From a virus (lineage: Duplodnaviria; Heunggongvirae; Uroviricota; Caudoviricetes), in IMG/VR virus record IMGVR_UViG_3300043172_000799, positions 92,944 to 156,943 of that record: 64,000 nt of DNA; one strand, 5' to 3'. Position numbers and translations under genes: made by a program. Below, one piece after another: positions 23,629-46,960 of the stretch. Below the pieces are notes generated by a model. The model did no database searches. It saw only the letters and a list, made by a program, of their open reading frames with translations, and had not been told where the DNA came from. The number at the start of each line of letters is the position of its first letter. The first letter of the stretch is position 1.

Positions 23629-23927
23629 TGGATTTTCTCCATTAAAGTCATAACTGTACCATCCTCTAGGAAGATTAGTCCTACAATAGTTTTAGCAGTT
23701 ATGCGTTCTAGTTCTCTAATCTCTTGAATTATATCAGATTTTAATACTATACAATTTTCGGCTGACCCCGAATATCCATTTTTCCAAAAAAAATCACCAG
23801 AAACTTCAGCATTCTCTACACTTGTGTTCATGATATCGGAGGGAGCTTTAACCTCCTCTTCGATCACTTCTTCTACCGAAGGAGGTTGTCTTCCAAGTTC
23901 CTTACTCGTTTTATATTTATCAACCAT
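23625..23927 (-). CDS. hypothetical protein
   Basis: 100-aa ORF. Confidence 0.3.
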   Translation of the reverse strand: MVDKYKTSKELGRQPPSVEEVIEEEVKAPSDIMNTSVENAEVSGDFFWKNGYSGSAENCIVLKSDIIQEIRELERITAKTIVGLIFLEDGTVMTLMEKIQ

Positions 23928-25206: not shown

Positions 25207-26069
25207 TACACAGACACCTCTCCTCTAATTGATGGATGATAAGAATAATCTATTAAAACAATATCCTCACTAGAATTAAAATCTCTTATATCTTTTAATT
25301 TACTAGCAATAGTCACGGACGGTAATGTGAACTCTCTACCATCCCTAGAAATCTGCTTATCAACTTGTTCCGTGAGATTGTTGTAAATGTGTGTATCCCC
25401 TAAAAATCCAGTCAATATTCCAGACTTGTACCCAAATTGATGGGCAAGAAGCTCCAATAGCAATCCATAAGATGCAATATTGAATGGTAATCCTAAAAAT
25501 ACATCTACTGATCTTTGATACCATAATAAATCAAGATATCCTCCACGAACAATTACTTGCCAAAGCAGATGACAAGGAGGAAGAGCCATTTGATCTAACT
25601 GTAATGGATTCCATGCTGAAACTATCATTCTTCTATCATTGGGATGACACTCTAAACTATGTAATACTTTCTCTAACTGGTCGTAGTTATCACCATTGAA
25701 ATTTCTCCATTGCCTTCCATAGATTGGTCCTAAGTCCAATTCCTGTACTTGAAATGCTTTCCTTTCTTCATTATTAAGAACATCAGATGGGACTTGCATT
25801 GGATTACACCATTCATCCCAGATGTGGCAGTTTCTATTCTGATACCAATCTTTACTTGTTATTCCCTTAATAAAGCCTTCTAATTCGGTAGCCATGGTCT
25901 TAAAAGCTACTTTCTTAGTAGTAAGCAATGGAAATCCCTCTGCCATGTTATGTTGAATCATAGCCCCTGAAATAGATTGTGTCCCTGTACCTGTACGATC
26001 TCCTTTGTGCATTCCATTTTGTTTTATATTTCTCAATAAATTTATGTATTGTTTATCTAAAGTGTTCAT
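25206..26069 (-). CDS. thyA: thymidylate synthase (ThyA family; dCMP hydroxymethylase not excluded)
   Basis: 'MALPPCHLLWQVIV' active-site Cys motif. N-terminal 'LLRNIKQNG...GDRTGTGT' folate/dUMP-binding region. Confidence 0.8.
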   Translation of the reverse strand: MNTLDKQYINLLRNIKQNGMHKGDRTGTGTQSISGAMIQHNMAEGFPLLTTKKVAFKTMATELEGFIKGITSKDWYQNRNCHIWDEWCNPMQVPSDVLNNEERKAFQVQELDLGPIYGRQWRNFNGDNYDQLEKVLHSLECHPNDRRMIVSAWNPLQLDQMALPPCHLLWQVIVRGGYLDLLWYQRSVDVFLGLPFNIASYGLLLELLAHQFGYKSGILTGFLGDTHIYNNLTEQVDKQISRDGREFTLPSVTIASKLKDIRDFNSSEDIVLIDYSYHPSIRGEVSV

Positions 26070-27932: not shown

Positions 27933-28721
27933 TTATTCTCCTTTTCCTCTACTGTTATCAAAAGAGTGTTTGTTGAAGTACCTCTCTTCTGCTTCTTTTC
28001 TAACTTTAATAGCATCTTTTTTATATATAAAGGAACCTAAGTGTTTCCGTCCGGCACCCATACCTATACGAGCTATCCACCTCTTTTGTTTGTCATTCCA
28101 TACAACACCGGCAATTCCAGAGGTGTTATTTGACATCAAGGCTCTGTTCATATTGTTTTGGCTTCTTGTAGTAGGTCTTAGATTCCTGTTAATATTATTT
28201 AGACCATTTCCATCTTTATGATCAGGCATGTGTCCTTTCTCTGATGGGCATAGTATTTGATGCATCATAATAGTCTTCTTACCATAAAACTTTTGTTGAT
28301 CTATTGGGATGTTAGCAACAGCATAATATGTATTTGCCTTTGCTACTCTAAACCAGCAGATGCTTTTCACTTTATCATAATTTTCTTTATCTATAATAGC
28401 GTAATCATCACAGTTGAAGAAATAAATTTTAATGTAAGCACCACAATCTTCTGCAATGTTTATTTTGTGATTCTTAATGTGAGTTTTTCGTACAGCTTCC
28501 TTTTGTAGACAGCCACAACTCTTAGTTTTATTTCCTACCAAGTCTGCTCTTCTAATAGATCTTATACTCCCACTGGGACATGAGCATTTACATGAGTACT
28601 TCCAATCAGAAGGGCAGATATTTGCCTCGCCATTAATCTTACTATCCTCATCCACCTCAATAATGGTAAGTCTCCCAAATTCCATTCCTGCTTCTAAGTA
28701 CTTAGGATACTTTGCCATCAA
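27933..28721 (-). CDS. free-standing HNH-AP2 homing endonuclease
   Basis: 'CKCSCPSGS...SCGC'. HNH 'DHKDGNGLNNINRNLRPTTRSQNNMN'. AP2 'SGIAGVVWNDKQKRWIARIGMGAGRKHLGSF'. Confidence 0.8.
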   Translation of the reverse strand: MMAKYPKYLEAGMEFGRLTIIEVDEDSKINGEANICPSDWKYSCKCSCPSGSIRSIRRADLVGNKTKSCGCLQKEAVRKTHIKNHKINIAEDCGAYIKIYFFNCDDYAIIDKENYDKVKSICWFRVAKANTYYAVANIPIDQQKFYGKKTIMMHQILCPSEKGHMPDHKDGNGLNNINRNLRPTTRSQNNMNRALMSNNTSGIAGVVWNDKQKRWIARIGMGAGRKHLGSFIYKKDAIKVRKEAEERYFNKHSFDNSRGKGE

Positions 28722-29830
28722 ATAGCCTTTATCAACTTCTCTGAGGGGAAGTCCTCATAGTATTCCGCTACAGTCCCCACACTTCCATCTAGCCATTTAA
28801 AAGCAAGATCTTTATATGGTGTACCTACAACTAAGGTAGCAAATCTTTTTCTATTTGCTAATTCCTTATCAGAAAAGCTCTTAAGATATTTCAAGAATCC
28901 TTCTGCTTCTGCCATGTACAGATCATACTTATCCTTTACAGATGCCAAAACATTTTTGTATTCAGGAAAGTAAGTAAGCACCTCAGCCATCTCATTCTTT
29001 CTTATGATATCCAAAGCTCTCTTTTCTGTAAAGATCCCCTCTCCCCTCATATGGTGCAAATGAACGTATACTTCACCTTTAATCTTAATTCGATTGAAAT
29101 ATTTATCACAAACTACAATACCTTCTTTATCAGTCCCAAAATCTTGTACCAGATCTATACAATCCTCAAGATTGGCTAGATCATATTCTTGCAGACTACT
29201 CACTATAGCACTTATGGCAAGATGGTTCTTCTCTTCCCCTGTTTTATTGTCCTTGGAAGAAAGATAGAATATCTTTGGAGAATCATATCGTACCACCACT
29301 CTGTTAGAGGGAGTACACAATTCAAAGATATGCGTTTCATCTTCAAGATCATTAAGGAAGCTGAAATTCTGTACATTGTAATTAACCATTAAGGTATTGA
29401 TGAACAGTGCTCCAAAACTGTCAATAGGAATTCCTTCATCATTGAAAGTAAGTTCCTGAAGCCCTGCATTAAATCCATTTATTGTCCCATTGGTAGCAAT
29501 GAACCATCCACCATTTATACAGTATAGTTTTATGATGCTTCCATCTTCCTTAGAAGTAGCTCGTGCAGATTTCCAATCAATTTCTGGAACGTAACTCTCA
29601 CCATAATTTCCAAACTTATGAAAGGGATGACATACTATTTCCCAAGTACCTTCCCGAAGGATAATTCCTCTACATTCTCGCACTAATGGCTTGTGAAAAT
29701 CTGATTTAATTTGGTTATACTTAAATATGACTAATCCGTTATCTTTCTTAACCTTTATAGCATAATCTCTTTCTAAAAGCTCCTCATAGTTCTCTGGATG
29801 CTCTTTACAAAACTCTTGTATTTTTAACAT
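28718..29830 (-). CDS. rnlA: RNA ligase 1 (T4 RnlA-like)
   Basis: 'VRECRGIILRE' matches T4 Rnl1 'ALECRGIMFEM'. Motif I 'TSKEDGSIIKLY' matches 'TKEDGSLVS'. Confidence 0.8.
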   Translation of the reverse strand: MLKIQEFCKEHPENYEELLERDYAIKVKKDNGLVIFKYNQIKSDFHKPLVRECRGIILREGTWEIVCHPFHKFGNYGESYVPEIDWKSARATSKEDGSIIKLYCINGGWFIATNGTINGFNAGLQELTFNDEGIPIDSFGALFINTLMVNYNVQNFSFLNDLEDETHIFELCTPSNRVVVRYDSPKIFYLSSKDNKTGEEKNHLAISAIVSSLQEYDLANLEDCIDLVQDFGTDKEGIVVCDKYFNRIKIKGEVYVHLHHMRGEGIFTEKRALDIIRKNEMAEVLTYFPEYKNVLASVKDKYDLYMAEAEGFLKYLKSFSDKELANRKRFATLVVGTPYKDLAFKWLDGSVGTVAEYYEDFPSEKLIKAI

Positions 29831-30132
29831 TTGTGCTCCTTAGTAATTAAATTTCTTTTTCCATTTATATAAAGTTTGGAAAGGCATCTCTATTGTGCTA
29901 GAAATTTCTGGAATGGTCAACCCTTTCTCTTTAAAATACTATTAAGCCTATCTACGTGCTCAGAATAAGAAAGTCTCCTTATAGTGTGTTCTATACCATC
30001 ACTGCCAGTATAAGATAAAAAATTCTCCCTCTTTTAGGGACATGTATTCTCTCATTTTTCCAGCATATTTTATGTCCATTATACGCTTTTATTTGTTCAT
30101 CTGACAAAACTCTCATAAGAATCTCCTTTTTT

Positions 30133-31014
30133 TTAAAATTCAGTGTGGTAAATTCTATCATCAATATTAAATACGGTAAGTCCCATACTTTTCCATTCTC
30201 TGACCATAATCGGACGATCATCAAATACACCACACACAACAAAGCCCTTTCTGGCAACATGCTGGTCAAATAATTCCCGTTTAATAATAGCATCTTTCCT
30301 ACTGTCACCTTTGGCTCGCATGTATAATCCCTCGTATGGGATGATATAATCATCTAACCACTTTTCAGTAAGTTCTCGGCAAGAGCTATCTCTCCCAGAC
30401 ATAATGTAGATCGTATTTCCGGTTCTATGTAGTAGTCTCAAAATTAGAGCTACATCTACCCTTAACTTATCTTCTCCTACCCGATCCCACATAAAAGGTT
30501 TTCTACCATTCATTTGAGCAAGGGAGCCATCCAAATCAAAAATATAAAGTTGATTTAAATTTCCATCTCTGGGGTCTGCCTGATGCTTTTTGTTTTCCCT
30601 AACATCAAAATGTCTCATCCAAGTATTTTGAATGATACTAGCACCAAGACTATTCTCACGCTTAAGATCGTTCTCAATACATTTTTCCAAAGGCACATCT
30701 AGAAAACTTTTAATTTCAAATTCCACAGCCGGATAGTACCCTTTAATTACTGCCTTTCTCTCTTTGATTTTTTCCATACTTAAATTCATGGAATCAATAA
30801 TTGCATTCTTCCCACTATCCAAAATAGATAGAATCATTTCCTTCTCAACCTTGGAGATGAACTTCTCATTTTTGGCATTAAAATGAATATTATCAAACAT
30901 CAGCCGGAGATCGTCCCTGCATACTCGTTTCCAATTAGGGTCTTGAGCACGTTTCTTAGCATACGTACTCTTCCCTGATCCTTGAATACCACGCATAAAT
31001 AATACTTTACTCAC
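30133..31014 (-). CDS. pnk: polynucleotide 5'-kinase / 3'-phosphatase (T4 Pnk-like)
   Basis: N-terminal P-loop 'FMRGIQGSGKSTYAKK'. C-terminal HAD phosphatase 'LYIFDLDGSLAQMNGR...IMSGRDS...KGDSRKDAIIKRELF...VFDDRP' is collinear with T4 Pnk 'VIFDVDGTLAKMNGR...VVSGRES...QGDTRKDDVVKEEIF...AIDDRT'. Confidence 0.85.
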   Translation of the reverse strand: MSKVLFMRGIQGSGKSTYAKKRAQDPNWKRVCRDDLRLMFDNIHFNAKNEKFISKVEKEMILSILDSGKNAIIDSMNLSMEKIKERKAVIKGYYPAVEFEIKSFLDVPLEKCIENDLKRENSLGASIIQNTWMRHFDVRENKKHQADPRDGNLNQLYIFDLDGSLAQMNGRKPFMWDRVGEDKLRVDVALILRLLHRTGNTIYIMSGRDSSCRELTEKWLDDYIIPYEGLYMRAKGDSRKDAIIKRELFDQHVARKGFVVCGVFDDRPIMVREWKSMGLTVFNIDDRIYHTEF

Positions 31015-31264
31015 TAGTTCCCTCCTGCACTAATAACATAGGGGTGATAGCCAGAGTATTGGCAGAGAAGACACCTACGTTGTACACGTAAAACAATTTT
31101 CCATTATTGGACACAACAATATGACTATCATTATCTATTCGATATATTGTATCTTCTGGAAAAGCTTTAAGTACAGCTTCTCTGCATTTTAGCTCATCAT
31201 ATCCATCACATCCTACAAATGTAAAAATTGATAGCGTGATAATTATCATTAATAATTTTTTCAT
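31007..31264 (-). CDS. small secreted lipoprotein
   Basis: Start refined to Met19 'MKKLLMIIITLSIFTFVGC' (signal peptide plus lipobox-like FVGC), preceded by GAAGGAGA. Confidence 0.45.
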   Translation of the reverse strand: MKKLLMIIITLSIFTFVGCDGYDELKCREAVLKAFPEDTIYRIDNDSHIVVSNNGKLFYVYNVGVFSANTLAITPMLLVQEGTSE

Positions 31265-31336
31265 ACATTCTCCTTCATTCTTTTTAATAAGTATACCATG
31301 ATAATGTTTTCTTGTCAAGTATATTTGTTAAAAAGG

Positions 31337-31352
31337 AGGAGCCGAAGCTCCT
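31337..31352 (-). terminator. GC-rich hairpin plus T-run (intrinsic terminator candidate)
   Basis: 'AGGAGCcgaaGCTCCT' stem-loop 9 nt downstream of the SPFH gene stop, followed on the minus strand by CCTTTTT. Confidence 0.5.
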
Positions 31353-31360
31353 ATACTTAT

Positions 31361-32635
31361 TTACTGGTTCTTAACTGTTTCAGAAATATTCATGAAAGAT
31401 TCAAGACCAATGGCATCAAAAGGATTCATGGGAGATCCTTCACCACCACCAAAGATCATCATATCAGGAAGATCTATATTTGACATATTCCTAGATACTA
31501 CATCAGCGATTTTGAAATTCCATTCTGCTTTCTGCTGTGGTGTAAGTCCTGCTCTTACTTTTAATGCATTGGCATCTGCTTCAGCTTTTTCTTTAACAAG
31601 TCGCTGTGTAGCTGACTCTCTGGCTTCAGCAGTTGCAAGTTTAGCAACATTAAGATCCCTTTGGGCATTCATCTCAGCAACTTCTTTTGCCTGTTCTGCT
31701 TTAAGTTTAGCAACTGCCTTCGCTTTCTCAGCCTGTGTTACGGCAGTGATCTTAGCAACTTCTTCAGTAGCTCTTGCTTTGGCAATATCGGCTTCACCCT
31801 GAGCTTCAGCAGTTAAAGCATCCTGTACGGCTTTTTCAGCATTTGTAATAGCAACAGCTTTTTCCTGTTCCGCTTTTTTCTTCTGGGAGATCAAGCTATC
31901 AATAGTTTCATCATAATCAATATCTTTTAAAGTATGGTTAACAAGCTCAAGACCATACTCTTTGAAGATACCTGGTTTGATAATAATAGGAAACCCATCA
32001 GCATCAGTTTTAATAACTACTCTTGTAGAAGATGCCATGATTACATTACCTTCTTCATCTTCTTCATTTGTTGGAGTTAGTACTTTTTCAATAATTGTTG
32101 CATACAACCCATTGGCAATCTGATCTGTTATCAGTTGTGAAAACTCTCCACGGCGTGTTGAATATGTTTCATCAGCTTTAAATGTGGAAGCAGTCTGTTT
32201 AGAAACTTCAATTATCCATTGCCGTACCTGTGCAGATAAAGAAGCAAATCCTCTATAGTTTCTATGTATCTTAATAATAGGGACATCTCCTAAAGGCATT
32301 CTCCACTGGGTGACAGAACCTATCTCTGCTGTACCACCATCACCAAACCGAACAGTGGTTGCATTAGTTTCTGCACCTTTACCACCATCAAGCGCATCAT
32401 TTGATAAGTACGTCTCTGATGTTCTGTAGTACTCTGTGATCTTACCAAACATCTGAAGGTAAAGCCCCTCTTCTGCTCTTGTGGTTAGCGTTCCAGTCAA
32501 GGTCGCCTGTTTTACATGGATCTCTCCACCATCTACTGTCTCAACAATTGACTGTGAGAAGAGTAACACTACAATAAGTGCAATAACTCCTCCCCCTATA
32601 ATTCCTATTCTATTTGGGTTCATTTTTATATTCAT
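31361..32635 (-). CDS. SPFH/band-7 (flotillin/HflK-like) membrane protein
   Basis: N-terminal TM 'IGIIGGGVIALIVVLLF'. Central beta-rich domain. Long Ala/Glu/Lys-rich heptad region 'AEAQGEADIAKARATEEVAKITAVTQAEKAKAVAKLKAEQAKEV' typical of HflK/flotillin. Confidence 0.55.
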   Translation of the reverse strand: MNIKMNPNRIGIIGGGVIALIVVLLFSQSIVETVDGGEIHVKQATLTGTLTTRAEEGLYLQMFGKITEYYRTSETYLSNDALDGGKGAETNATTVRFGDGGTAEIGSVTQWRMPLGDVPIIKIHRNYRGFASLSAQVRQWIIEVSKQTASTFKADETYSTRRGEFSQLITDQIANGLYATIIEKVLTPTNEEDEEGNVIMASSTRVVIKTDADGFPIIIKPGIFKEYGLELVNHTLKDIDYDETIDSLISQKKKAEQEKAVAITNAEKAVQDALTAEAQGEADIAKARATEEVAKITAVTQAEKAKAVAKLKAEQAKEVAEMNAQRDLNVAKLATAEARESATQRLVKEKAEADANALKVRAGLTPQQKAEWNFKIADVVSRNMSNIDLPDMMIFGGGEGSPMNPFDAIGLESFMNISETVKNQ

Positions 32636-32648
32636 ATATTATTTCTCC

Positions 32649-32882
32649 TTATTTTGTTTCTTCCATAAATTCGGAAACTTTGGCTTTTTCTTTCTGTACT
32701 TTCTTAAGGTCTACATCCTTCACATTCTTATACAATTCATTTTCAATTTCTATTTCTTCTTTTCTTTTTCTTATTTCCTCCCTCTTTTCATCTCTACCTA
32801 TTTCATTCCATTTCTTAAGTCCCCATTTATAAAATATATAGAAAGCTAATAATGGAATACCAATACTTAATATTATTGACAT
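32649..32882 (-). CDS. small single-pass membrane protein
   Basis: N-terminal TM 'SIILSIGIPLLAFYIFY', then a charged coiled coil. Confidence 0.45.
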   Translation of the reverse strand: MSIILSIGIPLLAFYIFYKWGLKKWNEIGRDEKREEIRKRKEEIEIENELYKNVKDVDLKKVQKEKAKVSEFMEETK

Positions 32883-32895
32883 TTATTTCCTCCTA

Positions 32896-33048
32896 ACTAA
32901 ACATATTAAATGCAACTCTCCATAAAATAACTAAAACAACTACAAGACATGTGTTCCTTAAACTGAATCCCAATCCCCCAAAATCATACACAGGACATCC
33001 CAATGCAGATGTTACTGCACCTATGACAAAAGCTCCTATCATATACAT
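32896..33048 (-). CDS. 50-aa hydrophobic miniprotein (not in ORF track)
   Basis: ATG 33048, preceded by AAGGAG. MYMIGAFVIGAVTSALGCPVYDFGGLGFSLRNTCLVVVLVILWRVAFNMFS. Directly downstream of promoter 33079..33107. Confidence 0.35.
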
Positions 33049-33078
33049 ACTTTATCTCCTTATCTTTAAGATGTTTTA

Positions 33079-33107
33079 AATATAACACATCTATTTAGTT
33101 TTGTCAA
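33079..33107 (-). promoter_or_regulatory. sigma70-type promoter (TTGACA-17-TATATT)
   Basis: Minus strand TTGACA 33107..33102, TATATT 33084..33079. Its 22-nt core is duplicated at 33225..33246. Confidence 0.5.
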
Positions 33108-33217
33108 TCCCTATTCGGGGATACTTTAAATAATATTCCTTTTCACTAGCTACCTTTTTGCAGTGTTCATGAGAAACATGTGATACCTCCTAACTTACTC
33201 ATTTCTAAGTTAATCTA

Positions 33218-33246
33218 AGAATAGCACATCTATTTAGTTTTGTCAA
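33218..33246 (-). promoter_or_regulatory. second copy of the promoter element (TTGACA-17-TATTCT)
   Basis: Identical 22-mer 'cacatctatttagttttgtcaa' with a weaker -10. Confidence 0.3.
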
Positions 33247-33371
33247 CTAGTTTTTTGTCACGTACAGTTCCTCCAGAAACACAACCACCATCAGCTCCTC
33301 TATATCCATATACACAATACCCAACTAAACATCGTTTAGATCTCCCAAGATACAAAGGGCATACTTTAGGT

Positions 33372-33941
33372 TTATTTTCCATAAGCCAGCCTTGGATACA
33401 GCATTCCTATCTTTGACTGTAAACCGGCTATGGTTGAATCATTGTAAATAACACTGTCAGGAACGATACTGTCTATTTCCATTTCAGAGGAATGTGTATC
33501 GATAGAGATAAGTCCCTCTCGTTCCAGTTTAATAATATGTCCTCCCATAGATTTAATGGTGTTGGCTTCATTTAAGAATCTAACATCAGATATAACTACA
33601 TTTGGCTTCTCTGTAAAAGAATCATACCAGTACTGAAATCTTTTTACCCAGATATCGGACCCTATCAATTCCTTGAATAATGGTAATATCTCTTGTAGCC
33701 TTTGCCTGAATAATTCTGTGCCCATAGCTTGTTGTGCCTGTCTGGGAGAGATATTCCATCTAGGGTCAATTGTCTCTTTATATTTTCCATTAACCCATTC
33801 ATCATCCCAAAGGAAGATTTCTGCCACTGATGTTTTAATTGGATCTGCAAATTTGTATCTGGTAAATCCAAATTGATCTATCAAATAATCTGCTACCTCA
33901 TCTTTCCCTGATCTTTTTTTTCCTACTATTCCTAGTATCAT
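33372..33941 (-). CDS. deoxynucleoside monophosphate kinase (T4 gp1-like)
   Basis: 'MILGIVGKKRSGKDEVADYL...YKFADPIKTSVAEIF' matches T4 gp1 'LIFLSGVKRSGKDTTADFI...YQLAGPIKDALAYAW'. Confidence 0.75.
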   Translation of the reverse strand: MILGIVGKKRSGKDEVADYLIDQFGFTRYKFADPIKTSVAEIFLWDDEWVNGKYKETIDPRWNISPRQAQQAMGTELFRQRLQEILPLFKELIGSDIWVKRFQYWYDSFTEKPNVVISDVRFLNEANTIKSMGGHIIKLEREGLISIDTHSSEMEIDSIVPDSVIYNDSTIAGLQSKIGMLYPRLAYGK

Positions 33942-34933
33942 TCCATAACCACCTTATCCAAATAATTCATAAACCACATTCGTGCTTTCACACTCATGGC
34001 TTTCCCTACATCTTTAGGCTCCAAACCATTCTCATTTAATACATCCATTTCTTCCATAATAATATCTCTGTTAACCCACTTAAGGAAATCACTCATCATC
34101 TGGATTCTGGGTGTTTCAGATGCAGAAGTGAAAACCTGTTCAATAGCCTGATTCAATCTGTTCTCTGTGACTGCATATTCCACAAACTCATTGACTGAAT
34201 TCATCTTTTCAATGTCCACAGGAGCTACTGTCTTAACTTTAGATGCCGAGTGCTTCTCCCCCTTAGTTTTAAAAATATGATCTCTGTGTCCATTCTCATC
34301 ATAGTGTGACCACACAATCCCTTCCCCAATACCATGTGCATCAAAATGCTTTGAGAAAGGACATTCCTCCTCCACTTCATCCACTAACTTAATCATTTCT
34401 GCCTGTGCAATCTGTGAATAGTTAAAATCAATCTCCAGTTCATATGTGAGGAAATCAAAGATATTATACACATCAAGATCCTCATTCATAAAATCAGGCT
34501 GTGTGTAGAAATGATCTGCTTCATCTTCAATTCCTGTATATTTGATTGCAAAGACCACAAATCGTTTAGAGAGATGATTTAAAGCAACTCCTGTCTGGAT
34601 ATTTCCACCACACCATTCTCCGAAGATAGTGGTGATATATCCATCTTTATGTAGATAATCAAATATTTTATACCAAAAATCTTTTCTATTGCTGGCAAAG
34701 AAAGCAAATCCTGCATTATCTTTCTCTGGAGTAATTATATTCTTTCTACTCTGATACCAAATTCCATCTGCCGGTGTATGGCATATCCCTGCATTCGTTC
34801 CGTGGAGCTTAATTGCCCCTTCAAAAGTTAGCGTAGGGTGTGTAGCTCTAACCTCTCCTTCTGGCACATGGCATACATTTCTAATGATGTGCCGGTACTG
34901 TCCTATTTTTGTAAAACTAATAAATTTTTTCAT
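33938..34933 (-). CDS. RNA ligase 2 (T4 Rnl2-like)
   Basis: Motif I 'AIKLHGTNAGI' matches Rnl2 'EKIHGTNFSL'. 'IFGEWCGGNIQ' matches 'VFGEFAGPGIQ'. Motif V 'IFKTKGEKH'. 331 aa, similar in length to T4 Rnl2. Confidence 0.8.
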   Translation of the reverse strand: MKKFISFTKIGQYRHIIRNVCHVPEGEVRATHPTLTFEGAIKLHGTNAGICHTPADGIWYQSRKNIITPEKDNAGFAFFASNRKDFWYKIFDYLHKDGYITTIFGEWCGGNIQTGVALNHLSKRFVVFAIKYTGIEDEADHFYTQPDFMNEDLDVYNIFDFLTYELEIDFNYSQIAQAEMIKLVDEVEEECPFSKHFDAHGIGEGIVWSHYDENGHRDHIFKTKGEKHSASKVKTVAPVDIEKMNSVNEFVEYAVTENRLNQAIEQVFTSASETPRIQMMSDFLKWVNRDIIMEEMDVLNENGLEPKDVGKAMSVKARMWFMNYLDKVVME

Positions 34934-35148
34934 ACATCCTCCCCATCTTGTAAAACATCTTTTAATACGGCTCTTTGTACATCACTCCAACTAGCAACCT
35001 CTTCTAGTATCTTAGGCTCCTTCATTAGCAAGCACATAATGATTTCTGTTGCTTCTTCTGTTCCATATTTCTCCACAATAGCTTCTGCCAATTCATCCCA
35101 TGACCATGCATTAGGATCTTCTAATAGTTTTTCAAGTGCTTCTACCAT
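34930..35148 (-). CDS. hypothetical protein
   Basis: 72-aa ORF. Confidence 0.3.
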   Translation of the reverse strand: MVEALEKLLEDPNAWSWDELAEAIVEKYGTEEATEIIMCLLMKEPKILEEVASWSDVQRAVLKDVLQDGEDV

Positions 35149-35149
35149 C

Positions 35150-35545
35150 TTATATATCCTTTTTATGTACAGCAGTGTACCCTTTTACATAAACATTGAA
35201 ATTAAAATATAATTCTTCTATAGAATCAGCTTCACAAGATATAGTGAGGCTGGAGCAAAAGAACATATGCTCCCATTCTACAGAAATGTTTTTAGATACC
35301 ATGTAACCGTGAAATGATCCGAGCAACTCATTCAGATAGTCACATTCGGTATTTTTATCATAAAATATAAAAGCTGTTTCCACTCCAAGCATATACTTTT
35401 TTGTTTTCTTATCATACACGATATCAATATCATTAGCTTGGTATAAACTAGCTTCACCACTACAAGAGCTTATTCCCCAGATGAATTTTAGATTTCTTTC
35501 AGCATAACTAAAATAATCCCTAATTTTGTATATTAAACTTCTCAT
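35150..35545 (-). CDS. hypothetical protein
   Basis: 131-aa ORF. Confidence 0.35.
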   Translation of the reverse strand: MRSLIYKIRDYFSYAERNLKFIWGISSCSGEASLYQANDIDIVYDKKTKKYMLGVETAFIFYDKNTECDYLNELLGSFHGYMVSKNISVEWEHMFFCSSLTISCEADSIEELYFNFNVYVKGYTAVHKKDI

Positions 35546-35874
35546 CTATTTCTCCTTTGCAATACTTTCCAATATTTCCTGGTACCCTTTCTATCAACAT
35601 ACTCCAAAATTACTTTTGCCCACATTTTCGGGCTAAGTAACTTAATTCCTGTTCTAGAGTCAAGTTCTTCCCAATAGACTTTTGGAGTGTAGTACCCACC
35701 TTCTAGAAGATAAGTTAAAGATTGTCCTGCCATCCACTCTTTTCTACCTGTAAATCTTTCCTCCAGCTTATCTAATACAGATAGGATTACACCATCTATA
35801 TTAGAATAAATGTTGGATGTAGTAACTTTGATAGCAGATCTGCATCCTTCTTTTCCAACTAGGTACACAATCAT
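35542..35874 (-). CDS. hypothetical protein
   Basis: 110-aa ORF. Confidence 0.35.
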   Translation of the reverse strand: MIVYLVGKEGCRSAIKVTTSNIYSNIDGVILSVLDKLEERFTGRKEWMAGQSLTYLLEGGYYTPKVYWEELDSRTGIKLLSPKMWAKVILEYVDRKGTRKYWKVLQRRNR

Positions 35875-36260
35875 GGCTTTCCCTCATACTTTTCTTTCAA
35901 TTCTAAGTACGTAGCCTTTTCTTTAGCTTCCTTTAGAGCCTTGGCTTTCTTATCATTTTGAACTTGTACATTCATCACTTTCTTTTTAGCTTTTAATACC
36001 TCTGCTTTTTTCTCCTCTCTATACTCCTGATTGTATAAAAAATTAATATCTAAGTAGAAACCATAATCCTCATGACCACCATAAGCCCAGCTCTCTTCAC
36101 CACTAAATGTAATTCCATTACTACCTAATTCAGTCACAAAGAGGTGTTTCAATCCATCTATTTTTTTAATATTATCATTATACCATTGTAGAGCTTCTTC
36201 TGCTTCCTCACAAACTTTATCATACTCTTCTAAGAACTCATAATATCTTTCTTCAGTCAT
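35871..36260 (-). CDS. hypothetical protein
   Basis: 129-aa ORF. Confidence 0.35.
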   Translation of the reverse strand: MTEERYYEFLEEYDKVCEEAEEALQWYNDNIKKIDGLKHLFVTELGSNGITFSGEESWAYGGHEDYGFYLDINFLYNQEYREEKKAEVLKAKKKVMNVQVQNDKKAKALKEAKEKATYLELKEKYEGKP

Positions 36261-36448
36261 AGATCCTCCTTCTCTGTTAGATCTATGTATGGTTGTAATT
36301 CTTTTAGTTTCTGCTCAGTCCTTTTTATTAATTGTTCGTACTTTTCCTTTTGCTCTGAAGCCCATGCTCCCTCTAATTTCCCTGTGGAGATGACCAGTAA
36401 ATACTCTAGTCTATTTTGTTCTTCAATTATTATATCAGCTATTATCAT
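36257..36448 (-). CDS. hypothetical protein
   Basis: 63-aa ORF. Confidence 0.3.
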   Translation of the reverse strand: MIIADIIIEEQNRLEYLLVISTGKLEGAWASEQKEKYEQLIKRTEQKLKELQPYIDLTEKEDL

Positions 36449-37174
36449 TTACTCCTCCATATCACAATTAACCAAATTATCTATAACATTTGGTTCTTTT
36501 GAAAATATAGGTGCTTCATTTAAAAACTCCCATCCATTCTCAGTCTTTACACAGAAATTTCCATTCTTCCATTTATCTTTGTAGTCTTCCCATGTAATTT
36601 GGTGCTCATCCCACAACATCTGTTTGATGTCATTAGTATTCTTTTTATGCATTTTACTATGAGAGAACACAGATTGTCCTGCAAGCTGAATGGAATTCCT
36701 TTTCCAATCCATACTTCTCCACACAAAATAATTATTCACTTCTTCACGGGGAATGTTGAATACTCTGCTATCGAAATAAGCAGTCTTTGAGGAATTATAT
36801 ATACTGCTGTAGTAATGATTAAACTCCGCAGTAGCAATAGAAGCAGAGACACTACACATCTTCTGTATACCATAATCAAACCATGCATCCGTTGTAAGTT
36901 TGTCATAATCTGTGATTAGAATGGAAATTTCATCTGATTGCATATATGCACATTTAGCTCCCTGAATTTCTTCACAAAGCTTGATGGTGGTTGCTCTCAT
37001 CATAGCATTTAAATTTTCATCGAACGGTCTATCCATACCTTTTGTAATAGAATGAAAGCACTTCCCATCTAAGCGACAGATAACTGGTGTTCTCCTAGTT
37101 AAATACGTTCTAGCTCTCTTTTCATAATTATCTTTCATTCTATCTGCAATTTGTGTTTTATCCATCGACCTCAA
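36449..37174 (-). CDS. Thg1-like protein (tRNA-His guanylyltransferase family, 3'-5' nucleotide addition)
   Basis: 'RTPVICRLDGKCFHSITKGMDRPFDENLNAMMRATTIKL...AYMQSDEISILI' is collinear with Thg1 'IVVRIDGKKFHEF...KPNDENALKLMNACA...AFGESDEYSFIL'. Confidence 0.75.
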   Translation of the reverse strand: MRSMDKTQIADRMKDNYEKRARTYLTRRTPVICRLDGKCFHSITKGMDRPFDENLNAMMRATTIKLCEEIQGAKCAYMQSDEISILITDYDKLTTDAWFDYGIQKMCSVSASIATAEFNHYYSSIYNSSKTAYFDSRVFNIPREEVNNYFVWRSMDWKRNSIQLAGQSVFSHSKMHKKNTNDIKQMLWDEHQITWEDYKDKWKNGNFCVKTENGWEFLNEAPIFSKEPNVIDNLVNCDMEE

Positions 37175-40231: not shown

Positions 40232-40240
40232 TTTCTCCCC

Positions 40241-40717
40241 CTAATCAAACCATGTGCTTTTGATATTATTGTCAACAATGAACTTAGAGAATACCTCAAA
40301 ACCTTTCCATGTATCAATATGGTAGGTATCAATAAAGAAGTCTTCGGGATTAGTTTCTAATAATTTATTTTCCCGAATTTTGCAAATTTTATCTAAATCC
40401 TTTAAGGGAGTTCCTTGCTCAAGTAATTCATCCAAGTATTTCATTATAGCTTTATTAGAGCCTCTAGTCTCAGAAGGGGAAATGTTACAGCCATGTCCAT
40501 CAGCTCTTATTTCTAGTGCTTTTTCTACACTATTAAACAGCTTCAGAGCTTTAGTCACAGGCATCTGCCCGTAGATTACCATGTAATAGTTCTGGAAATG
40601 TGCTGTAAAACCGTTTAAGGCATATACATCAATAGATGAACCTATTGGCATATAGTAGTGTTTCTTCCAACCACTAGCTTTCATTAATGTTTTAAATGTA
40701 TATGTGTCTTTTCTCAT
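40241..40717 (-). CDS. hypothetical protein
   Basis: 158-aa ORF, ATGA-coupled to the HD hydrolase gene. Confidence 0.35.
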   Translation of the reverse strand: MRKDTYTFKTLMKASGWKKHYYMPIGSSIDVYALNGFTAHFQNYYMVIYGQMPVTKALKLFNSVEKALEIRADGHGCNISPSETRGSNKAIMKYLDELLEQGTPLKDLDKICKIRENKLLETNPEDFFIDTYHIDTWKGFEVFSKFIVDNNIKSTWFD

Positions 40718-41292
40718 TTTGTCATCCTTATATCCATGTAGTCTACGTCAATCCTGTATCTCTCAGCTAGCCAATTCACATGAGAAGCAATCCGATATGC
40801 AAACAGTTTATGAATGTGATCAGGATTATGCCCAATTCTATTCTGGTATACAGAAGAAATTAAAGCTTCTGTATCTATTACATACTTTGTGATAAACTTC
40901 AAAGGGATTCCATTCATTTCTAGAAACTGTACATTATGAAGTCTATCCACTAACTTAATTGTGAGAGCATCATCAGACATTCTCATCATTTTATCATATA
41001 AATATTCCAGTTTGGTTATTCCTTTGGGAATGATGGAAGTAAGTTCATCAACTAAGTTTCCCACTTTACTTCCAAATTCTTTATGGATCATTTCAGAAGT
41101 GATGTCAGTGTCTTCCACTACATCATGGAGCAATCCTGAAGCAACCAAGACGGGATCTTTCGTGAAATCTTCTAATATTCTAGCTACGAATTTAGGATGA
41201 ATAAAGTAAGGTAATTCCACCCATTTTCTTTCCTGTCCTTCGTGTGCTTCCTGAGCAAATGTGTATGCTCTATTTACCAAATTTTTTAACAT
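40714..41292 (-). CDS. HD-domain small alarmone ((p)ppGpp) hydrolase, RelA/SpoT-type
   Basis: 'FAQEAHEGQERKWVELPYFIHPKFVARIL...VASGLLHDVVEDTDITSEMIHKEFGSKVGNLVDELT' matches the SpoT/Mesh1 HD hydrolase consensus 'A..aH.GQ.Rk.G.PYi.Hpl.VA.iL......aALLHDvvEDT..t.eei...FG..Va.lV'. Confidence 0.75.
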   Translation of the reverse strand: MLKNLVNRAYTFAQEAHEGQERKWVELPYFIHPKFVARILEDFTKDPVLVASGLLHDVVEDTDITSEMIHKEFGSKVGNLVDELTSIIPKGITKLEYLYDKMMRMSDDALTIKLVDRLHNVQFLEMNGIPLKFITKYVIDTEALISSVYQNRIGHNPDHIHKLFAYRIASHVNWLAERYRIDVDYMDIRMTK

Positions 41293-41326
41293 TAAATACC
41301 TCCTAGATAATCTCTATTCTCTTGTT

Positions 41327-41911
41327 TCAAAATTCCCTCACTATAATCTCATATATTTCTTTCCAGTTATCTACTCTCTGCATACCATTAATTACCGCAG
41401 GATAATCCTTATTATGCCCCTGATTAAATAATATCCTTCTTCCATTAAACTCTTCCATATTTAATGGTCTATCGTCTACTATAAAATCCCCAGACACCAG
41501 ACTTTTATTAGTTCCAAAGAAGAAGTTCCTACTATCCAAGAATGGAAAATGACGTTCAAGCCACTTAACTTTATATGGTGCAATATCCCAGTTCCCTGAT
41601 ATAGAGGATACTACGAATATTTCCACCATCTTTTCCAAATACCCAACAATTTCTATAGCATCATCCATTGGCAACATATTATCCCACAGAGTTGTTACTA
41701 CTCCATATCTGTTTTCTTCTGGCTTCAAATAAGTGTAGATAGTATTCCCACATTTAGGTTTGGTGAACTTAGCTATATCCCAATCTGTGATTATCTTAGT
41801 ATCCAAGTTATCATCCCAGACATTGTTGTATACTGCTATCCATGGGGTAAGTAAATCTCCCAATGTATCATCGAGATCCAAGATCAATCTTTTTCTTTTC
41901 ATCCATCCCAC
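41327..41911 (-). CDS. HAD-family 5'(3')-deoxyribonucleotidase-like phosphatase
   Basis: Motif I 'LILDLDDTL'. Motif IV-like 'FIVDDRP'. Confidence 0.45.
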   Translation of the reverse strand: MGWMKRKRLILDLDDTLGDLLTPWIAVYNNVWDDNLDTKIITDWDIAKFTKPKCGNTIYTYLKPEENRYGVVTTLWDNMLPMDDAIEIVGYLEKMVEIFVVSSISGNWDIAPYKVKWLERHFPFLDSRNFFFGTNKSLVSGDFIVDDRPLNMEEFNGRRILFNQGHNKDYPAVINGMQRVDNWKEIYEIIVREF

Positions 41912-42363
41912 TCCACTAATGTAATTTCAATATCAGGTGTTACCTCATTGATTATCTCTTTGATTTTATTCCAATTCCCACCGGCTAATCCAGCACCTAT
42001 TTTAGGTATCCCAACTACGTCTCCTCTAAAGTCATAATTAATAGTGGTAAATACTTCTCGTATAGCCATATAGTCAACTGGCTTTTCACCTCTATAGTCA
42101 TATTGTGTATAGGCATTGATTACTAGAAGATTCCCAACTGTCCCTAAATAATTAGTAAAAGCACAAGTATACGTCCCAAGTTTGTCTTTATCTCCTTTTT
42201 TTGAGTCCTTATCAATCTGGTAAGCATCTGGAAAATTTCTCTTAATTCCAAAGGCAATTCCCTTGCCCATTGTGCAAAAGCAATTACTCCCATGTACAAT
42301 GATATCAAAATTTCCCTGTTTCGCCAATTTTATTAAATCACCCTTTATTACTTTAGTTATCAC
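41899..42363 (-). CDS. macro-domain protein (ADP-ribose binding/processing)
   Basis: 'FDIIVHGSNCFCTMGKGIAFGI' matches 'VNAAN..L..GgGVa.AI'. 'GIPKIGAGLAGGNW' matches the macro 'iafPaIsTGiyG.p' block. Confidence 0.65.
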   Translation of the reverse strand: MITKVIKGDLIKLAKQGNFDIIVHGSNCFCTMGKGIAFGIKRNFPDAYQIDKDSKKGDKDKLGTYTCAFTNYLGTVGNLLVINAYTQYDYRGEKPVDYMAIREVFTTINYDFRGDVVGIPKIGAGLAGGNWNKIKEIINEVTPDIEITLVEWDG

Positions 42364-42948: not shown

Positions 42949-42974
42949 TTTTTTACTCCTTGTGTTTAATACTG

Positions 42975-43358
42975 CTACAGTAATTTATACTCACTAGTCA
43001 TATCCTTTACAAGAATACTTCTATAGGGACCAATGGCTATGCATGTCACAGTTGGTATTCCATGAAACTCTGTCTTGCCACAGTCAGTTATGATGGCATA
43101 TGGTATATCTAATCTCTTGGCTCTTTCTGCTAAAGAGTGGATATCAGACTCGGAATCACATCCCAATACTATTTTGGTAAAGATACCATTAATCCACTCC
43201 TTCTGCTCAGGAGTGACTGATATTATTAAGCAGTCATCTTCTAGCCAATTACCCTGATCTAAAATTACCTTCATGGAAGCATGTGCTACCTGAGATGCTA
43301 TTTTACCTTTTCTCATTTTAAGATCTTTTCTTACCACTATGGTCTGTTGTGTTAGCAT
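42975..43358 (-). CDS. peptidyl-tRNA hydrolase, PTH2 family
   Basis: 'QTIVVRKDLKMRKGKIASQVAHAS...GIFTKIVLGCDSESDIHSLAERAKRLDIPYAIITDCGKTEFHGIPTVTCIAIGP' is collinear with PTH2 '[25 protein letters not shown]...KVVLKV.dee.L..l...A...gLp..li.DAGrTqi..gs.TVLgiGP'. Confidence 0.85.
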   Translation of the reverse strand: MLTQQTIVVRKDLKMRKGKIASQVAHASMKVILDQGNWLEDDCLIISVTPEQKEWINGIFTKIVLGCDSESDIHSLAERAKRLDIPYAIITDCGKTEFHGIPTVTCIAIGPYRSILVKDMTSEYKLL

Positions 43359-43588
43359 TTATTCACTCCAATACTAAATATTTTCCCATCTTTTGGCAAG
43401 CCCAATTCCTCCCGTGAGTAACGTGTATTGAAATACGCTGTCACTTCACTAGGATTATCTGGATTACCATAAACAGGGTGATTGTATCTTGCCTCCGCAG
43501 GAAATCCTGCTTTACATAAGGAGCAGTCTATTTCTTCATTATTTATTTTTAGTTTTTTAATCCAAGGTATTTTATAATCATATTCCAT
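43352..43588 (-). CDS. hypothetical protein
   Basis: 78-aa ORF. Confidence 0.3.
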   Translation of the reverse strand: MEYDYKIPWIKKLKINNEEIDCSLCKAGFPAEARYNHPVYGNPDNPSEVTAYFNTRYSREELGLPKDGKIFSIGVNKC

Positions 43589-43596
43589 TTTGGCTC

Positions 43597-44031
43597 CTAA
43601 TCTAATATTCCATTTTTGATTTCTGTATACACTTCCAGATCGTTCTTTTTGGCTAGGCTTTCCATATATATTTTAGCCTTATCCTTATGCTCATATTGCC
43701 AGTATTTTTCAGTGGCTAGATCAAATACAGAACTTAGAAACTGTGGTCTAATTGTGATGCAAGTAAGTCTAAGTTGTCCTGCAAAATGCAGAATTACCCA
43801 ATTTCTTCTTGGCTTTAACTTGTCAATCCTATTGAAAATGTTAGAAAGTTGAGAAAAGATAAACTTGGTGAGACATTTCCCAACATCAGTATTTCCTTTC
43901 TTGATTTGGTCTTTTTTGTAAAATTCATATTGCTTCATCACTTTAGGCGTGCTCCATTCTGTTCCCATAAAAAACTCCTCATACCATACTTTATTAGAAG
44001 CATAGCACAAGGAGTATCTTTTGTCAAGCAC
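43597..44031 (-). CDS. hypothetical protein
   Basis: 144-aa ORF. Confidence 0.35.
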   Translation of the reverse strand: MLDKRYSLCYASNKVWYEEFFMGTEWSTPKVMKQYEFYKKDQIKKGNTDVGKCLTKFIFSQLSNIFNRIDKLKPRRNWVILHFAGQLRLTCITIRPQFLSSVFDLATEKYWQYEHKDKAKIYMESLAKKNDLEVYTEIKNGILD

Positions 44032-44164: not shown

Positions 44165-46960
44165 TTATGCACTTTCTTCATAGTCCCATTCATATCCGTA
44201 ACTCCTTATCAATTCTGCCTCTTTCTTTTCATCATCCCAATCTTTATCAGCATAAATATGATCATACCAATTCCCATTATCATAGTATTCTACATCCGCT
44301 TTCATGGTATGTATAACCCATCTGTGTTTCTTCATTAGATATGTAGTCATATAATAAACAACTTTCTCACGCAAACCCTTCCCTATCCATTCAGATAGAT
44401 CTTCTGGTGTATCAAAGTATATAGCATCATGAATCTGGGCTACTATTTTTGTCTTTAACTTGTTTTTATCTATATATTCTTGTATTTTAGTTTGTGCCTG
44501 AAGAATAAGATGAAAAGCAGGTCCTTGTATCACGTAATTGTTACACTGATTTCTATTCATAACTGTAGTTGAATAGAAGCCTGTTGCTAATTTTGTTCTC
44601 ATATTTTTTACATAATTTTTCCAGTTATCTTTTCTCCATTGTCCAAACTCTCCATAATTATCCTCCCAGTACCAATCACACACAGTTTTTATATGCTCTG
44701 TAAATTTCTTTTCTGTATCTATTTTAGACTCTTTGAAATATTGTTTGTGGTATTCCTGTAGATGTTTATTGTACACTGTTGGACCTATACTGAGATATAT
44801 ATCTCCAAATTGTAATGAAAAGGACATACCATTTTTACCTATATACCTAAGATCTTTCCACATATGAGCTTCCGTGTCATTTTTAGCATCATAATTTCCC
44901 ATTTCTTTTTTAATCTCTATCATGTCTTTAGATACTTGAGACAATTCCCCCATAAACAATTTTTCAGCTAAGCCAAGATGCATATCTAATCCTTCCTCTA
45001 ATTGTTTGAGCATGGTTTTATCATGATGTACAGAACACCCTACACCCACTTCTAAACTACTTGCATCTGCTCCTATGATTCTGTTTCCTTCTGAAGACAT
45101 TAAGAAAGACTTTGACATCTCTGCTGCAAATGGATCATGTTGACTTTGATTCTGCCAGTTTGGATTTTGAGAAGATCCTCTATAACTTTTTGGTATATTC
45201 AAAGAGAACATAGGGTATATGTGCCCTTCTACCATTTCTCTTCTAACACCTTTCAAATCTTGTGTTAATTTTATCAATTTAGCAAGCTCCAAGTACATTT
45301 TCAAAAACTCAGATAACGGAGCTATGTCTTTTAGCTCTTTAGCTTCTGTTGAATATTGATCCCCTCCTGTTTTTTTTGTTTTAGGTAATCTCAAAATATT
45401 AAAAAGAAAATCCGACAATTGTTTGCCAGAACTATAGTTGAACTCTGTATCTCTATTCTCATACCACTTATCAATTTCTGGACAATTTTTAATATTGTAT
45501 TGCAATTTGACTATTTTCTTTTCTAATATCATTTCATTTTTTATCAATCTTTCTTCATCTATTCTAAACCCATTCTCCATCATTCTACAAAAAGATAACA
45601 TACCATCATGAAATAAGTGAAAACCCTTCATCAAATGTGGATCACCTTCTATTTGTGGCCTCTGCCATTCATAAAGATGATATGTAAAATGGCTATCTTT
45701 TGCACAATATAAACACATATCCTTTAAATCCATAAGATGCATTGTATTGAAGCCATTTGCACCATATAATGCTTTCTCTTCTTTTGTAGATTTAATATAA
45801 CTATCTGCCATACTATCATATCCTAGAATTCCAAATCTCATATATGTCTGTACTTTTAAACCTGTGATATTAGATCTATTATCCAAAATGTGAGAAACTA
45901 GCATTGTGTCCCATACAAAGTTTTCAGATCTGTATCCAAATATGGAAATACTAGCTTGATACTCATATGCCATATTGTGTGATATTTTTCCAACCCTATT
46001 AGATTGAAGCAATCTCTTTAGATTATCCATAAATGGTTTGTTGTCATAGAATATAGGAAAACCATAAGATACAATACCATTACTAAAGGACACACAATAT
46101 ATTTTATGTCCTTTTTTTTGTAATTTTATACCACTTGCCTCATAGTCAAAAGATACTAAACTTTCCTTTTGCATACATTTCAGAACATGAGTAGCATCCT
46201 CCTCATGCATTACGGTACAACACTCTGACTCATATGTATCTTTTCTAAATTCTTTTTTTGATAATATATTTTTTAAATATTTTATAAAGAATTTTTCCTT
46301 TAATATAAAATCATCATACTCACATAATTTTTCATTCTTCCATAAAACAATTTTATCATCAGAACTTTTCCATTTCCCCCATTTTTTCAAGGAGTCTCTT
46401 CTTTTTTTAAGAGGCTGGAGTACAAAATTAATGTCATAATTTGGCATAACTAGCTTATGCAATTCTTGATCTGGTATTATAGTTCCATAGAACTTTTCTG
46501 TAGGTTTAAGGCTCATCCTTCCATTACATCTATCCCCTAAAAGAATCTCTAAAGGAAGTTCTCCTAGTGTTATTATTTTTTTAGGATTTAATTGCTTGAT
46601 TGTTTTATGCAATTTGTATTTGCAACTATTTATAATCTGAGTACTAGGTCCTCCCCAGTCCTCAGAAAAACATCTCACAGAAGGCACATACCAGCAATCT
46701 CTTTCTAAGTCAATATTAATTTTCTGTAAAGCATGTTTTAAATATTTCCCTTGTATATTACTTAAAAGTTTTCCAGATTGGTCTTCCCTTTCACTTGGAG
46801 GTGCTCCCACAATTAAGATGGATTTATCTCCGTTACCTACCACTCCTAGTTTTGGATTTTGGCAGTCCATATAAGCTTTACAACTTTCACAGCCTCCAAT
46901 TTTCTTTTTATTAACTTTCTTTCTAACTATTTCTTTTTCTATTTCAAAGAATCCTCGCAT
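44165..46960 (-). CDS. family A DNA polymerase with N-terminal family-4 UDG-like domain
   Basis: N-terminus 'GCESCKAYMDC...ILIVGAPPSEREDQSGKLL...SVRCF...IITLGELPLEIL' fits the UDG family 4 layout (GCxxC...GEAPGxxED..G.pF...N.vkCrPP). Motif A-like 'GADASSLEVGVGCSVHHD'. Motif B-like 'RYIGKNGMSFSLQFG'. Motif C 'VAQIHDAIYFD'. Confidence 0.8.
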   Translation of the reverse strand: MRGFFEIEKEIVRKKVNKKKIGGCESCKAYMDCQNPKLGVVGNGDKSILIVGAPPSEREDQSGKLLSNIQGKYLKHALQKINIDLERDCWYVPSVRCFSEDWGGPSTQIINSCKYKLHKTIKQLNPKKIITLGELPLEILLGDRCNGRMSLKPTEKFYGTIIPDQELHKLVMPNYDINFVLQPLKKRRDSLKKWGKWKSSDDKIVLWKNEKLCEYDDFILKEKFFIKYLKNILSKKEFRKDTYESECCTVMHEEDATHVLKCMQKESLVSFDYEASGIKLQKKGHKIYCVSFSNGIVSYGFPIFYDNKPFMDNLKRLLQSNRVGKISHNMAYEYQASISIFGYRSENFVWDTMLVSHILDNRSNITGLKVQTYMRFGILGYDSMADSYIKSTKEEKALYGANGFNTMHLMDLKDMCLYCAKDSHFTYHLYEWQRPQIEGDPHLMKGFHLFHDGMLSFCRMMENGFRIDEERLIKNEMILEKKIVKLQYNIKNCPEIDKWYENRDTEFNYSSGKQLSDFLFNILRLPKTKKTGGDQYSTEAKELKDIAPLSEFLKMYLELAKLIKLTQDLKGVRREMVEGHIYPMFSLNIPKSYRGSSQNPNWQNQSQHDPFAAEMSKSFLMSSEGNRIIGADASSLEVGVGCSVHHDKTMLKQLEEGLDMHLGLAEKLFMGELSQVSKDMIEIKKEMGNYDAKNDTEAHMWKDLRYIGKNGMSFSLQFGDIYLSIGPTVYNKHLQEYHKQYFKESKIDTEKKFTEHIKTVCDWYWEDNYGEFGQWRKDNWKNYVKNMRTKLATGFYSTTVMNRNQCNNYVIQGPAFHLILQAQTKIQEYIDKNKLKTKIVAQIHDAIYFDTPEDLSEWIGKGLREKVVYYMTTYLMKKHRWVIHTMKADVEYYDNGNWYDHIYADKDWDDEKKEAELIRSYGYEWDYEESA

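Follow-up and report, generated by a model that had tools for sequence, protein, structure and literature searches.

According to the textbook view, Pth2 is the archaeal and eukaryotic form of peptidyl-tRNA hydrolase (Pth). The archaeal enzymes of S. solfataricus (1xty), P. horikoshii (1wn2), and M. jannaschii (2zv3) belong to the same Pfam family as the phage protein analyzed here (referred to as phage Pth2) and have the same alpha/beta fold and the same K/D/T residues. They differ in serving as the sole Pth of the cell, whereas the gene for phage Pth2 belongs to a phage that infects bacteria, and in lacking a 9-residue beta-hairpin that follows helix 1 in the phage protein. Bacterial Pth1 (PF01195) presumably catalyzes the same reaction, the hydrolysis of N-blocked aminoacyl-tRNA esters (PMC5959882), but its sequence and fold are unrelated to those of phage Pth2, and activity against GNAT toxins has been shown for Pth1 only.

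Pth2 genes have been described in phages. The 2013 paper on Klebsiella phage RaK2 pointed to Pth2 in that phage (PMC3622015), a 2018 survey located PTH2 among the arrayed tRNA genes of cluster C mycobacteriophages (PMC5966550), and Iyer et al. 2021 grouped PTH2 with the RNA-repair functions of jumbo phages and suggested that it is of ancient origin (PMC7824862). The Viral AlphaFold Database paper (2025) described Pths as common in phages and viruses, superposed them on M. jannaschii Pth2, and gave as a rationale for viral Pths the dependence of lambda on the host Pth owing to minigene drop-off (PMC12487901). No experimental test of any phage Pth2 was found in our literature searches.

The gene examined here lies in a 64-kb stretch of phage DNA, which was analyzed as a whole and is referred to as the window. 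At E ≤ 1e-5, 935 homologues of phage Pth2 were retrieved. The top identity is 48% in GenBank phages and 61% in metagenomes, and PHROGs already holds the family as phrog_1866. A tblastn search identified homologues in 35 GenBank phage records, mostly annotated as peptidyl-tRNA hydrolase and mainly from jumbo phages and mycobacteriophages. The named homologues (Xanthomonas phages Xoo-sp13 and XacN1, Agrobacterium phage Atu_ph07, Sinorhizobium phiM12-like phages, and mycobacteriophages Myrna, Baka, and Pound) are encoded by large phages with an annotated Pth2 and share 40–48% identity with phage Pth2; RaK2 was absent from these matches and is known to us through PMC3622015 alone. The initial annotation had singled out the presence of a Pth2 in a phage. 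Such a presence is nothing out of the ordinary, as dozens of such genes are annotated in GenBank phages and the enzyme is covered in PMC3622015, PMC7824862, and PMC12487901; the gene is an ordinary, diverged addition to a known and already catalogued class of phage genes. A megablast of the 16 kb around Pth2 (positions 36000–52000) against GenBank phages returned no match, and the phage therefore has no annotated close relative there.

Scanning one genome per prokaryotic species retrieved at least 572 cellular relatives. The best 80 of these showed 37–53% identity and were almost all bacterial, with Myxococcota (Kofleriaceae) in the majority and Chitinophaga, Phocaeicola, and Singulisphaera among the others (Bacteroidota are also represented); some of the bacterial copies sit on complete chromosomes of 7–9.8 Mb. 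This big bacterial PTH2-family clade (loci L088–L167, especially Myxococcota/Kofleriaceae) conflicts with the textbook view of Pth2. The bacterial chromosomal proteins are the closest cellular relatives of phage Pth2, and the motifs HASMK and WxxGxFTK are common to both, although some of the genome-bin contigs may be misassigned phages. For example, L094, a 57-kb contig from a 'Bdellovibrionales' genome bin with 14 tRNAs adjoining Pth2, resembles a misassigned phage.

The Pth2 gene, its fold, and its active site

The Pth2 ORF covers exactly 42975..43358 on the minus strand, with 127 codons plus a stop codon and an ATG at 43358..43356. The features of the gene are as follows.

42975..43358, minus strand: Pth2 (PF01981) coding sequence, from the ORF call, Pfam, PDB, AlphaFold, and Foldseek
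43302..43304, minus strand: codon AAA for Lys19, aligned with Lys18 of S. solfataricus Pth2 (alignment and sequence)
43083..43085, minus strand: codon GAC for Asp92, aligned with Asp86 of S. solfataricus Pth2 (alignment and sequence)
43071..43073, minus strand: codon ACA for Thr96, aligned with Thr90 of S. solfataricus Pth2 (alignment and sequence)
43366..43369, minus strand: Shine-Dalgarno-like GGAG, 7 nt 5' of the Pth2 ATG (read from the sequence)

The TAA of the upstream 78-aa gene (43352..43354) overlaps the Pth2 start as ATGCTAA, and the orientation of Pth2 is that of all genes of at least 100 aa judged real in the 64-kb window. The strand, the start/stop overlap, and the GGAG fit a genuine gene. 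In a scan for promoters and terminators, the number of promoter-like sites was 23, whereas 36 were expected; the best of these on the minus strand (44027..43999) lies upstream of the 123-aa gene and is a match to the consensus only.

The PF01981 search that the initial annotation had named gave 102.7 bits (E 1.8e-29) over profile positions 2–115 of 115, compared with a gathering cutoff of 23 bits, while no Pfam match to bacterial Pth1 (PF01195) was obtained at E ≤ 0.1. All seven PDB sequence matches at E ≤ 1 were Pth2/Bit1 proteins, and the top match was 1xty (E 2.8e-18), to which phage Pth2 is 38% identical by BLASTP. A recent PDB entry labeled 'peptidyl-tRNA hydrolase' and also of 127 aa (24bt_A) matched phage Pth2 at E 4.7e-6. 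The AlphaFold2 model, which was built on an alignment of 28 relatives, reached a pLDDT of 96.1 and a pTM of 0.89. Foldseek of this model against the PDB returned 14 matches at E ≤ 0.001, all of them Pth2/Bit1 chains, with 1xty at the top (E 6e-11, TM-score 0.81/0.86) and the next match at E 0.1. The assignment to the PTH2 family rather than to bacterial Pth was thus upheld by the PF01981 score, the lack of a PF01195 match, and the recovery of Pth2 folds only. On sequence grounds, the identity of the gene as that of a Pth2-type peptidyl-tRNA hydrolase is confirmed far above chance.

Residues K19, D92, and T96 of phage Pth2 align with K18, D86, and T90 of S. solfataricus Pth2, which we take to be the active-site residues of that enzyme and which were reportedly assigned by Fromant and coworkers in 2005. 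The catalytic residues on which the initial annotation had made its claim depend are therefore present, and they are invariant in the 28 relatives (45–61% identity to phage Pth2), as are G18, H26, G94, and the G110-P111 motif. Based on this conservation, phage Pth2 is apparently catalytically active. The sole structural difference noted from the archaeal enzymes was the beta-hairpin insertion (approximately residues 36–46), the length of which varies within the clade.

The protein aligned over its full length with two NCBIfam models for archaeal Pth2 equivalogs but scored below their cutoffs (NF003314, 97.2 bits with a cutoff of 126; TIGR00283, 75.6 bits with a cutoff of 82), and the same function as archaeal Pth2 is therefore not guaranteed. 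As the nearest cellular relatives are also bacterial, phage Pth2 belongs to a phage/bacterial subclade and is no direct archaeal copy. The description of the protein as 'archaeal/eukaryotic-type' was accordingly retained at the family level and dropped at the equivalog level.

Linkage to tRNA genes and the gene neighborhood

The surroundings of phage Pth2 genes were compared in 80 IMG/VR loci that encode relatives at 39–51% identity, taking up to 10 kb on each side where the contig allowed; the sample includes duplicates (six are duplicate pairs). A tRNA gene was present within 10 kb of Pth2 in 54 of the 80 loci, within 1 kb in 39, and within 200 bp in 26. ARAGORN identified 688 tRNA genes in 1.44 Mb, of which 666 were on the Pth2 strand, and their density on either side of Pth2 was 0.3–0.9 per kb. 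For example, the loci L026, L021, L012, and L019 (among L005–L084) carry 27–33 tRNAs each in 15–20 kb. In contrast, the control set of 80 cellular Pth2 loci contained 21 tRNAs in 0.81 Mb, and a tRNA was found within 6 kb in only four loci, one of which resembles a misassigned phage contig; unlike the phage loci, the bacterial chromosomal loci are thus not tRNA-linked. Phage Pth2 genes are therefore typically embedded in tRNA arrays. Such embedding had been reported for cluster C mycobacteriophages, and it apparently extends to many large phages that are uncultured. The difference between 54 of 80 phage loci and four of 80 cellular loci is a statistic that any functional model must account for.

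The phage studied here is atypical in this respect, as a search of 83 kb, covering the window plus flanks of 10 kb, found no tRNA gene, and the tRNA-array linkage of its relatives is therefore not directly applicable to it. Whereas most phage relatives have Pth2 in a tRNA array, the gene here lies between the gene for a UDG-fused PolA and genes for repair and reversal enzymes. Downstream of Pth2, the order is a 194-aa membrane protein, a macrodomain protein, an NT5C nucleotidase, a RelA/SpoT-type HD hydrolase, and a GmrSD_N protein, followed by Thg1, a PF09414 RNA ligase, Pnkp, and a T4 Rnl1-type ligase. The genes relevant to the interpretation of Pth2 are as follows.

41899..42363, minus strand: macrodomain protein, DarG-like, 154 aa (phrog_335, E 4.9e-55)
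40714..41292, minus strand: stand-alone RelA/SpoT-type HD hydrolase, 192 aa (PF13328 HD_4, 54.2 bits; TIGR00691)
36449..37165, minus strand: Thg1-family tRNA 5'-end (3'-5') nucleotidyltransferase (PF04446, 100.1 bits; phrog_4717, E 2.1e-84)
33938..34933, minus strand: RNA ligase of the PF09414 type (PF09414, 46.7 bits; phrog_548, E 2.8e-55)
30133..31014, minus strand: Pnkp, T4-like (HAD_PNKP, 128.8 bits, and AAA_33; phrog_505, E 1.6e-74)
28718..29830, minus strand: T4 Rnl1-type RNA ligase (PF09511, 54.2 bits; phrog_562, E 1.3e-49)

From the gene order and these matches, the surroundings of Pth2 are therefore rich in genes for tRNA healing and sealing and for the reversal of modifications. The tRNA repair set (Rnl1, Pnkp, the PF09414 ligase, and Thg1) is found 6–15 kb downstream of Pth2 on one strand, and its proximity is weak evidence because this distance falls within a 64-kb block whose genes are uniformly on one strand. 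At 28718..37165 (minus strand), the phage encodes a complete set of tRNA repair enzymes, while the 83 kb searched contains no tRNA gene.

The macrodomain protein scored 20.7 bits against Pfam Macro, just short of the cutoff of 22, and its best NCBIfam match was the DarG antitoxin macrodomain (E 1.9e-12, far under the model cutoff). Judging from these matches, it may be an ADP-ribose-removing counter-defense enzyme. The HD hydrolase matched positions 1–123 of the 687 positions of TIGR00691 (E 7.3e-28), corresponding to the N-terminal (p)ppGpp-hydrolase domain of RelA/SpoT only, and its sequence resembles that of small alarmone hydrolases. Small alarmone hydrolases can degrade toxic alarmones or strip the 3' pyrophosphate added to tRNA by toxSAS enzymes (CapRel, FaRel2). 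By analogy, the HD hydrolase gene may serve in counter-defense.

For the 101 ORFs of the window, recurrence within 10 kb of Pth2 in the 80 viral loci was searched by single-sequence tblastn, the sensitivity of which is limited. By this measure, Rnl1 was the most frequent companion (11 of 80 loci), followed by the HD hydrolase (five), NAPRTase (four), Pnkp (two), and Thg1 (one). No synteny with the immediate neighbors (the 78-aa, 123-aa, and 194-aa membrane proteins, the macrodomain protein, and NT5C) was detected in the 80 loci. A fixed operon partner for Pth2 was ruled out, as no neighbor was conserved in these loci. A conserved pairing of Pth2 with a RelA/SpoT hydrolase was also considered, prompted by phiM19, in which a 'RelA/SpoT family protein' is encoded at a distance of 1 kb from Pth2; the pairing was rejected because the phiM19 protein is a weak synthetase-domain match and is not homologous to the HD hydrolase of the window.

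Candidate functions of the phage enzyme

We infer the enzymatic activity, substrate range, and physiological role of phage Pth2 as follows. The gene probably encodes a catalytically competent Pth2-family esterase, whose most likely task is tRNA recycling supplied by the phage, independently of the host and alongside phage tRNA repair. Peptidyl-tRNA would accumulate during infection through drop-off, stalling, or host attack on tRNA, and the Pth2 esterase would free the tRNA from peptidyl-tRNA or N-acyl-aminoacyl-tRNA. Acting beside the Rnl1, Pnkp, second RNA ligase, and Thg1 of the phage, it would keep the tRNA pool usable and allow translation to go on. The sequence analysis establishes the family, the fold, the conservation of the active-site residues, and the linkage of phage Pth2 genes to genes for tRNAs and for tRNA repair, all of which support this explanation. 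The lack of a tRNA gene in 83 kb, the non-conservation of the immediate neighbors, and the scores below the equivalog cutoffs argue against this explanation. A further counterpoint is that bacterial hosts already possess Pth1, which is essential, raising the question of why a phage needs another enzyme.

A specialized form of this explanation makes Pth2 a dedicated component of the repair pathway. Host anticodon nucleases would cut tRNAs, including ribosome-bound peptidyl-tRNAs, and Pth2 would strip the peptide, thereby freeing the ribosome and letting Pnkp, RNA ligase, and Thg1 mend the tRNA. Such ribosome rescue is consistent with the full T4-like healing and sealing set (Pnkp and Rnl1), which is encoded on one strand together with Thg1 and the second RNA ligase, and with the finding that no other window gene recurs near Pth2 as often as Rnl1 does (11 of 80 loci). 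However, no Rnl1 was detectable within 10 kb of Pth2 in the other 69 loci (single-sequence tblastn, with limited sensitivity), and Pnkp and Thg1 were near Pth2 in only two loci and one locus, respectively. To our knowledge, T4 Pnkp and Rnl1 function without any phage-encoded Pth, which also argues against a dedicated role. Ribosome rescue was put forward explicitly by Iyer et al. 2021 (PMC7824862); we consider it unlikely as the specific role of this gene.

It is also doubtful, with a modest chance of being correct, that Pth2 goes beyond a housekeeping role and belongs to a phage island for the reversal of damage from host toxins, in which it would specifically undo a defense directed at the aminoacyl end of tRNA. 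Such an island would also comprise the DarG-like macrodomain protein, the RelA/SpoT-type hydrolase, the enzymes for tRNA healing and sealing, and the NAD-salvage genes, and the target defense might be acetylation by GNAT toxins or the trapping of peptidyl-tRNA induced by nucleases. The cluster of repair and reversal enzymes around Pth2 provides only circumstantial support for a counter-defense role in general. If the damage-reversal reading is true, the non-host fold would make Pth2 immune to whatever blocks or saturates the host Pth1.

The more specific proposal of the initial annotation that Pth2 deacylates the N-acetyl-aminoacyl-tRNA made by GNAT toxins (TacT, AtaT, and ItaT) activated during infection is improbable, even though neutralization of such toxins by phage Pth2 is biochemically plausible by analogy with Pth1. 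Pth2 assays use N-acetylated aminoacyl-tRNA. The proximity of Pth2 to the DarG-like macrodomain protein and the RelA/SpoT-type hydrolase, two possible reversers of toxin-made modifications, is in line with this proposal. In vitro, bacterial Pth1 clears the acetyl-aminoacyl groups made by TacT, and overexpressing Pth1 counters the toxins (PMC5959882, PMC9241777); a passage of PMC12487901 that cites Cuzin 1967 also names N-acetylated aminoacyl-tRNAs as classical Pth substrates. However, the host Pth1 already has such activity, and in the genomes phage Pth2 is associated mainly with tRNA arrays rather than with any marker specific for GNAT toxins. Our literature searches found no paper in which GNAT/DUF1778 systems restrict phage and none in which a phage Pth2 was tried against GNAT toxins.

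Support for phage tRNAs or relief of codon mismatch would require Pth2 to recycle peptidyl-tRNAs formed on phage tRNAs, on the assumption that the host Pth1 may process them poorly, or to relieve drop-off at rare codons. The occurrence of Pth2 within same-strand tRNA arrays in most phage relatives, including the arrays of cluster C mycobacteriophages (PMC5966550), agrees with such a role. For the present phage, which is without a tRNA gene in 83 kb, there is little reason to expect it. Retention of the fold for another function, such as hydrolysis of a different ester or protein binding as proposed for human Bit1/PTRH2, is very improbable: the scores below the NCBIfam equivalog cutoffs and the beta-hairpin of variable length, absent from the archaeal enzymes, would be compatible with it, but the three active-site residues and the GxT and GP motifs are invariant, the whole PF01981 profile is matched, and a tRNA substrate is favored because phage Pth2 is linked to tRNA genes.

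By itself, the gene adds one more diverged Pth2 to a catalogued phage family, which carries little weight and would not surprise a specialist. The protein has a well-folded predicted structure and intact catalytic residues, and it is encoded by a phage without the usual tRNA array but with many tRNA-repair and modification-reversal genes; it is therefore a sensible choice for a first experiment on the role of a phage Pth2.

The phage genome and other genes of the window

The window corresponds to positions 27945..91944 of a 102-kb Logan contig, and the identical Pth2 protein was found on contigs of up to 168 kb. The G+C content is 0.32–0.36. The minus-strand replication and nucleotide genes of the window and flanks encode DNA ligase, Pif1 and DnaB helicases, a RecA-family protein, ribonucleotide reductase, the UDG-exonuclease-PolA fusion (44165..46960), a thymidylate-synthase-family protein, and a dNMP kinase, and the phage hallmarks include a T7 Gp5.9-like protein and tail genes. 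The tail, T7 Gp5.9-like, RecA-family, and Rnl1/Pnkp genes, together with the PHROG matches, support a large tailed phage as the probable source of the DNA.

The 931-aa DNA polymerase (44165..46960, minus strand) combines a family-4-like UDG domain with a 3'-5' exonuclease and PolA in one fused protein. Polymerases of a Pseudomonas phage and of SPO1-like Bacillus phages gave the fullest matches (at least 85% of its length), at only 20–23% identity. A thymidylate-synthase-family gene, the dNMP kinase gene, and the NT5C nucleotidase gene are located at 25206..26069, 33372..33941, and 41327..41911. As a set, the UDG-PolA fusion and these three genes could point to a modified pyrimidine in the phage DNA.

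A 428-aa protein encoded at 23920..25206 (minus strand) carries the precomputed Pfam label PF26128 'Gad2' (Gabija anti-defense). The hmmscan against Pfam returned nothing for this protein at E ≤ 0.001, and Gad2 was kept as a lead only. Its PHROG matches were mainly to families of unknown function, with a weak match to a nucleotidyltransferase.

The NAPRTase gene (62627..63793, minus strand) is followed by a gene for NAD synthase (NadE) just past the end of the window (9115..9954 of L086). These two genes are a possible phage pair for NAD+ salvage or reconstitution, judging from their sequence matches. At 59419..61714 (minus strand), genes for a 513-aa Ser/Thr protein kinase and for a PP2C phosphatase overlap.
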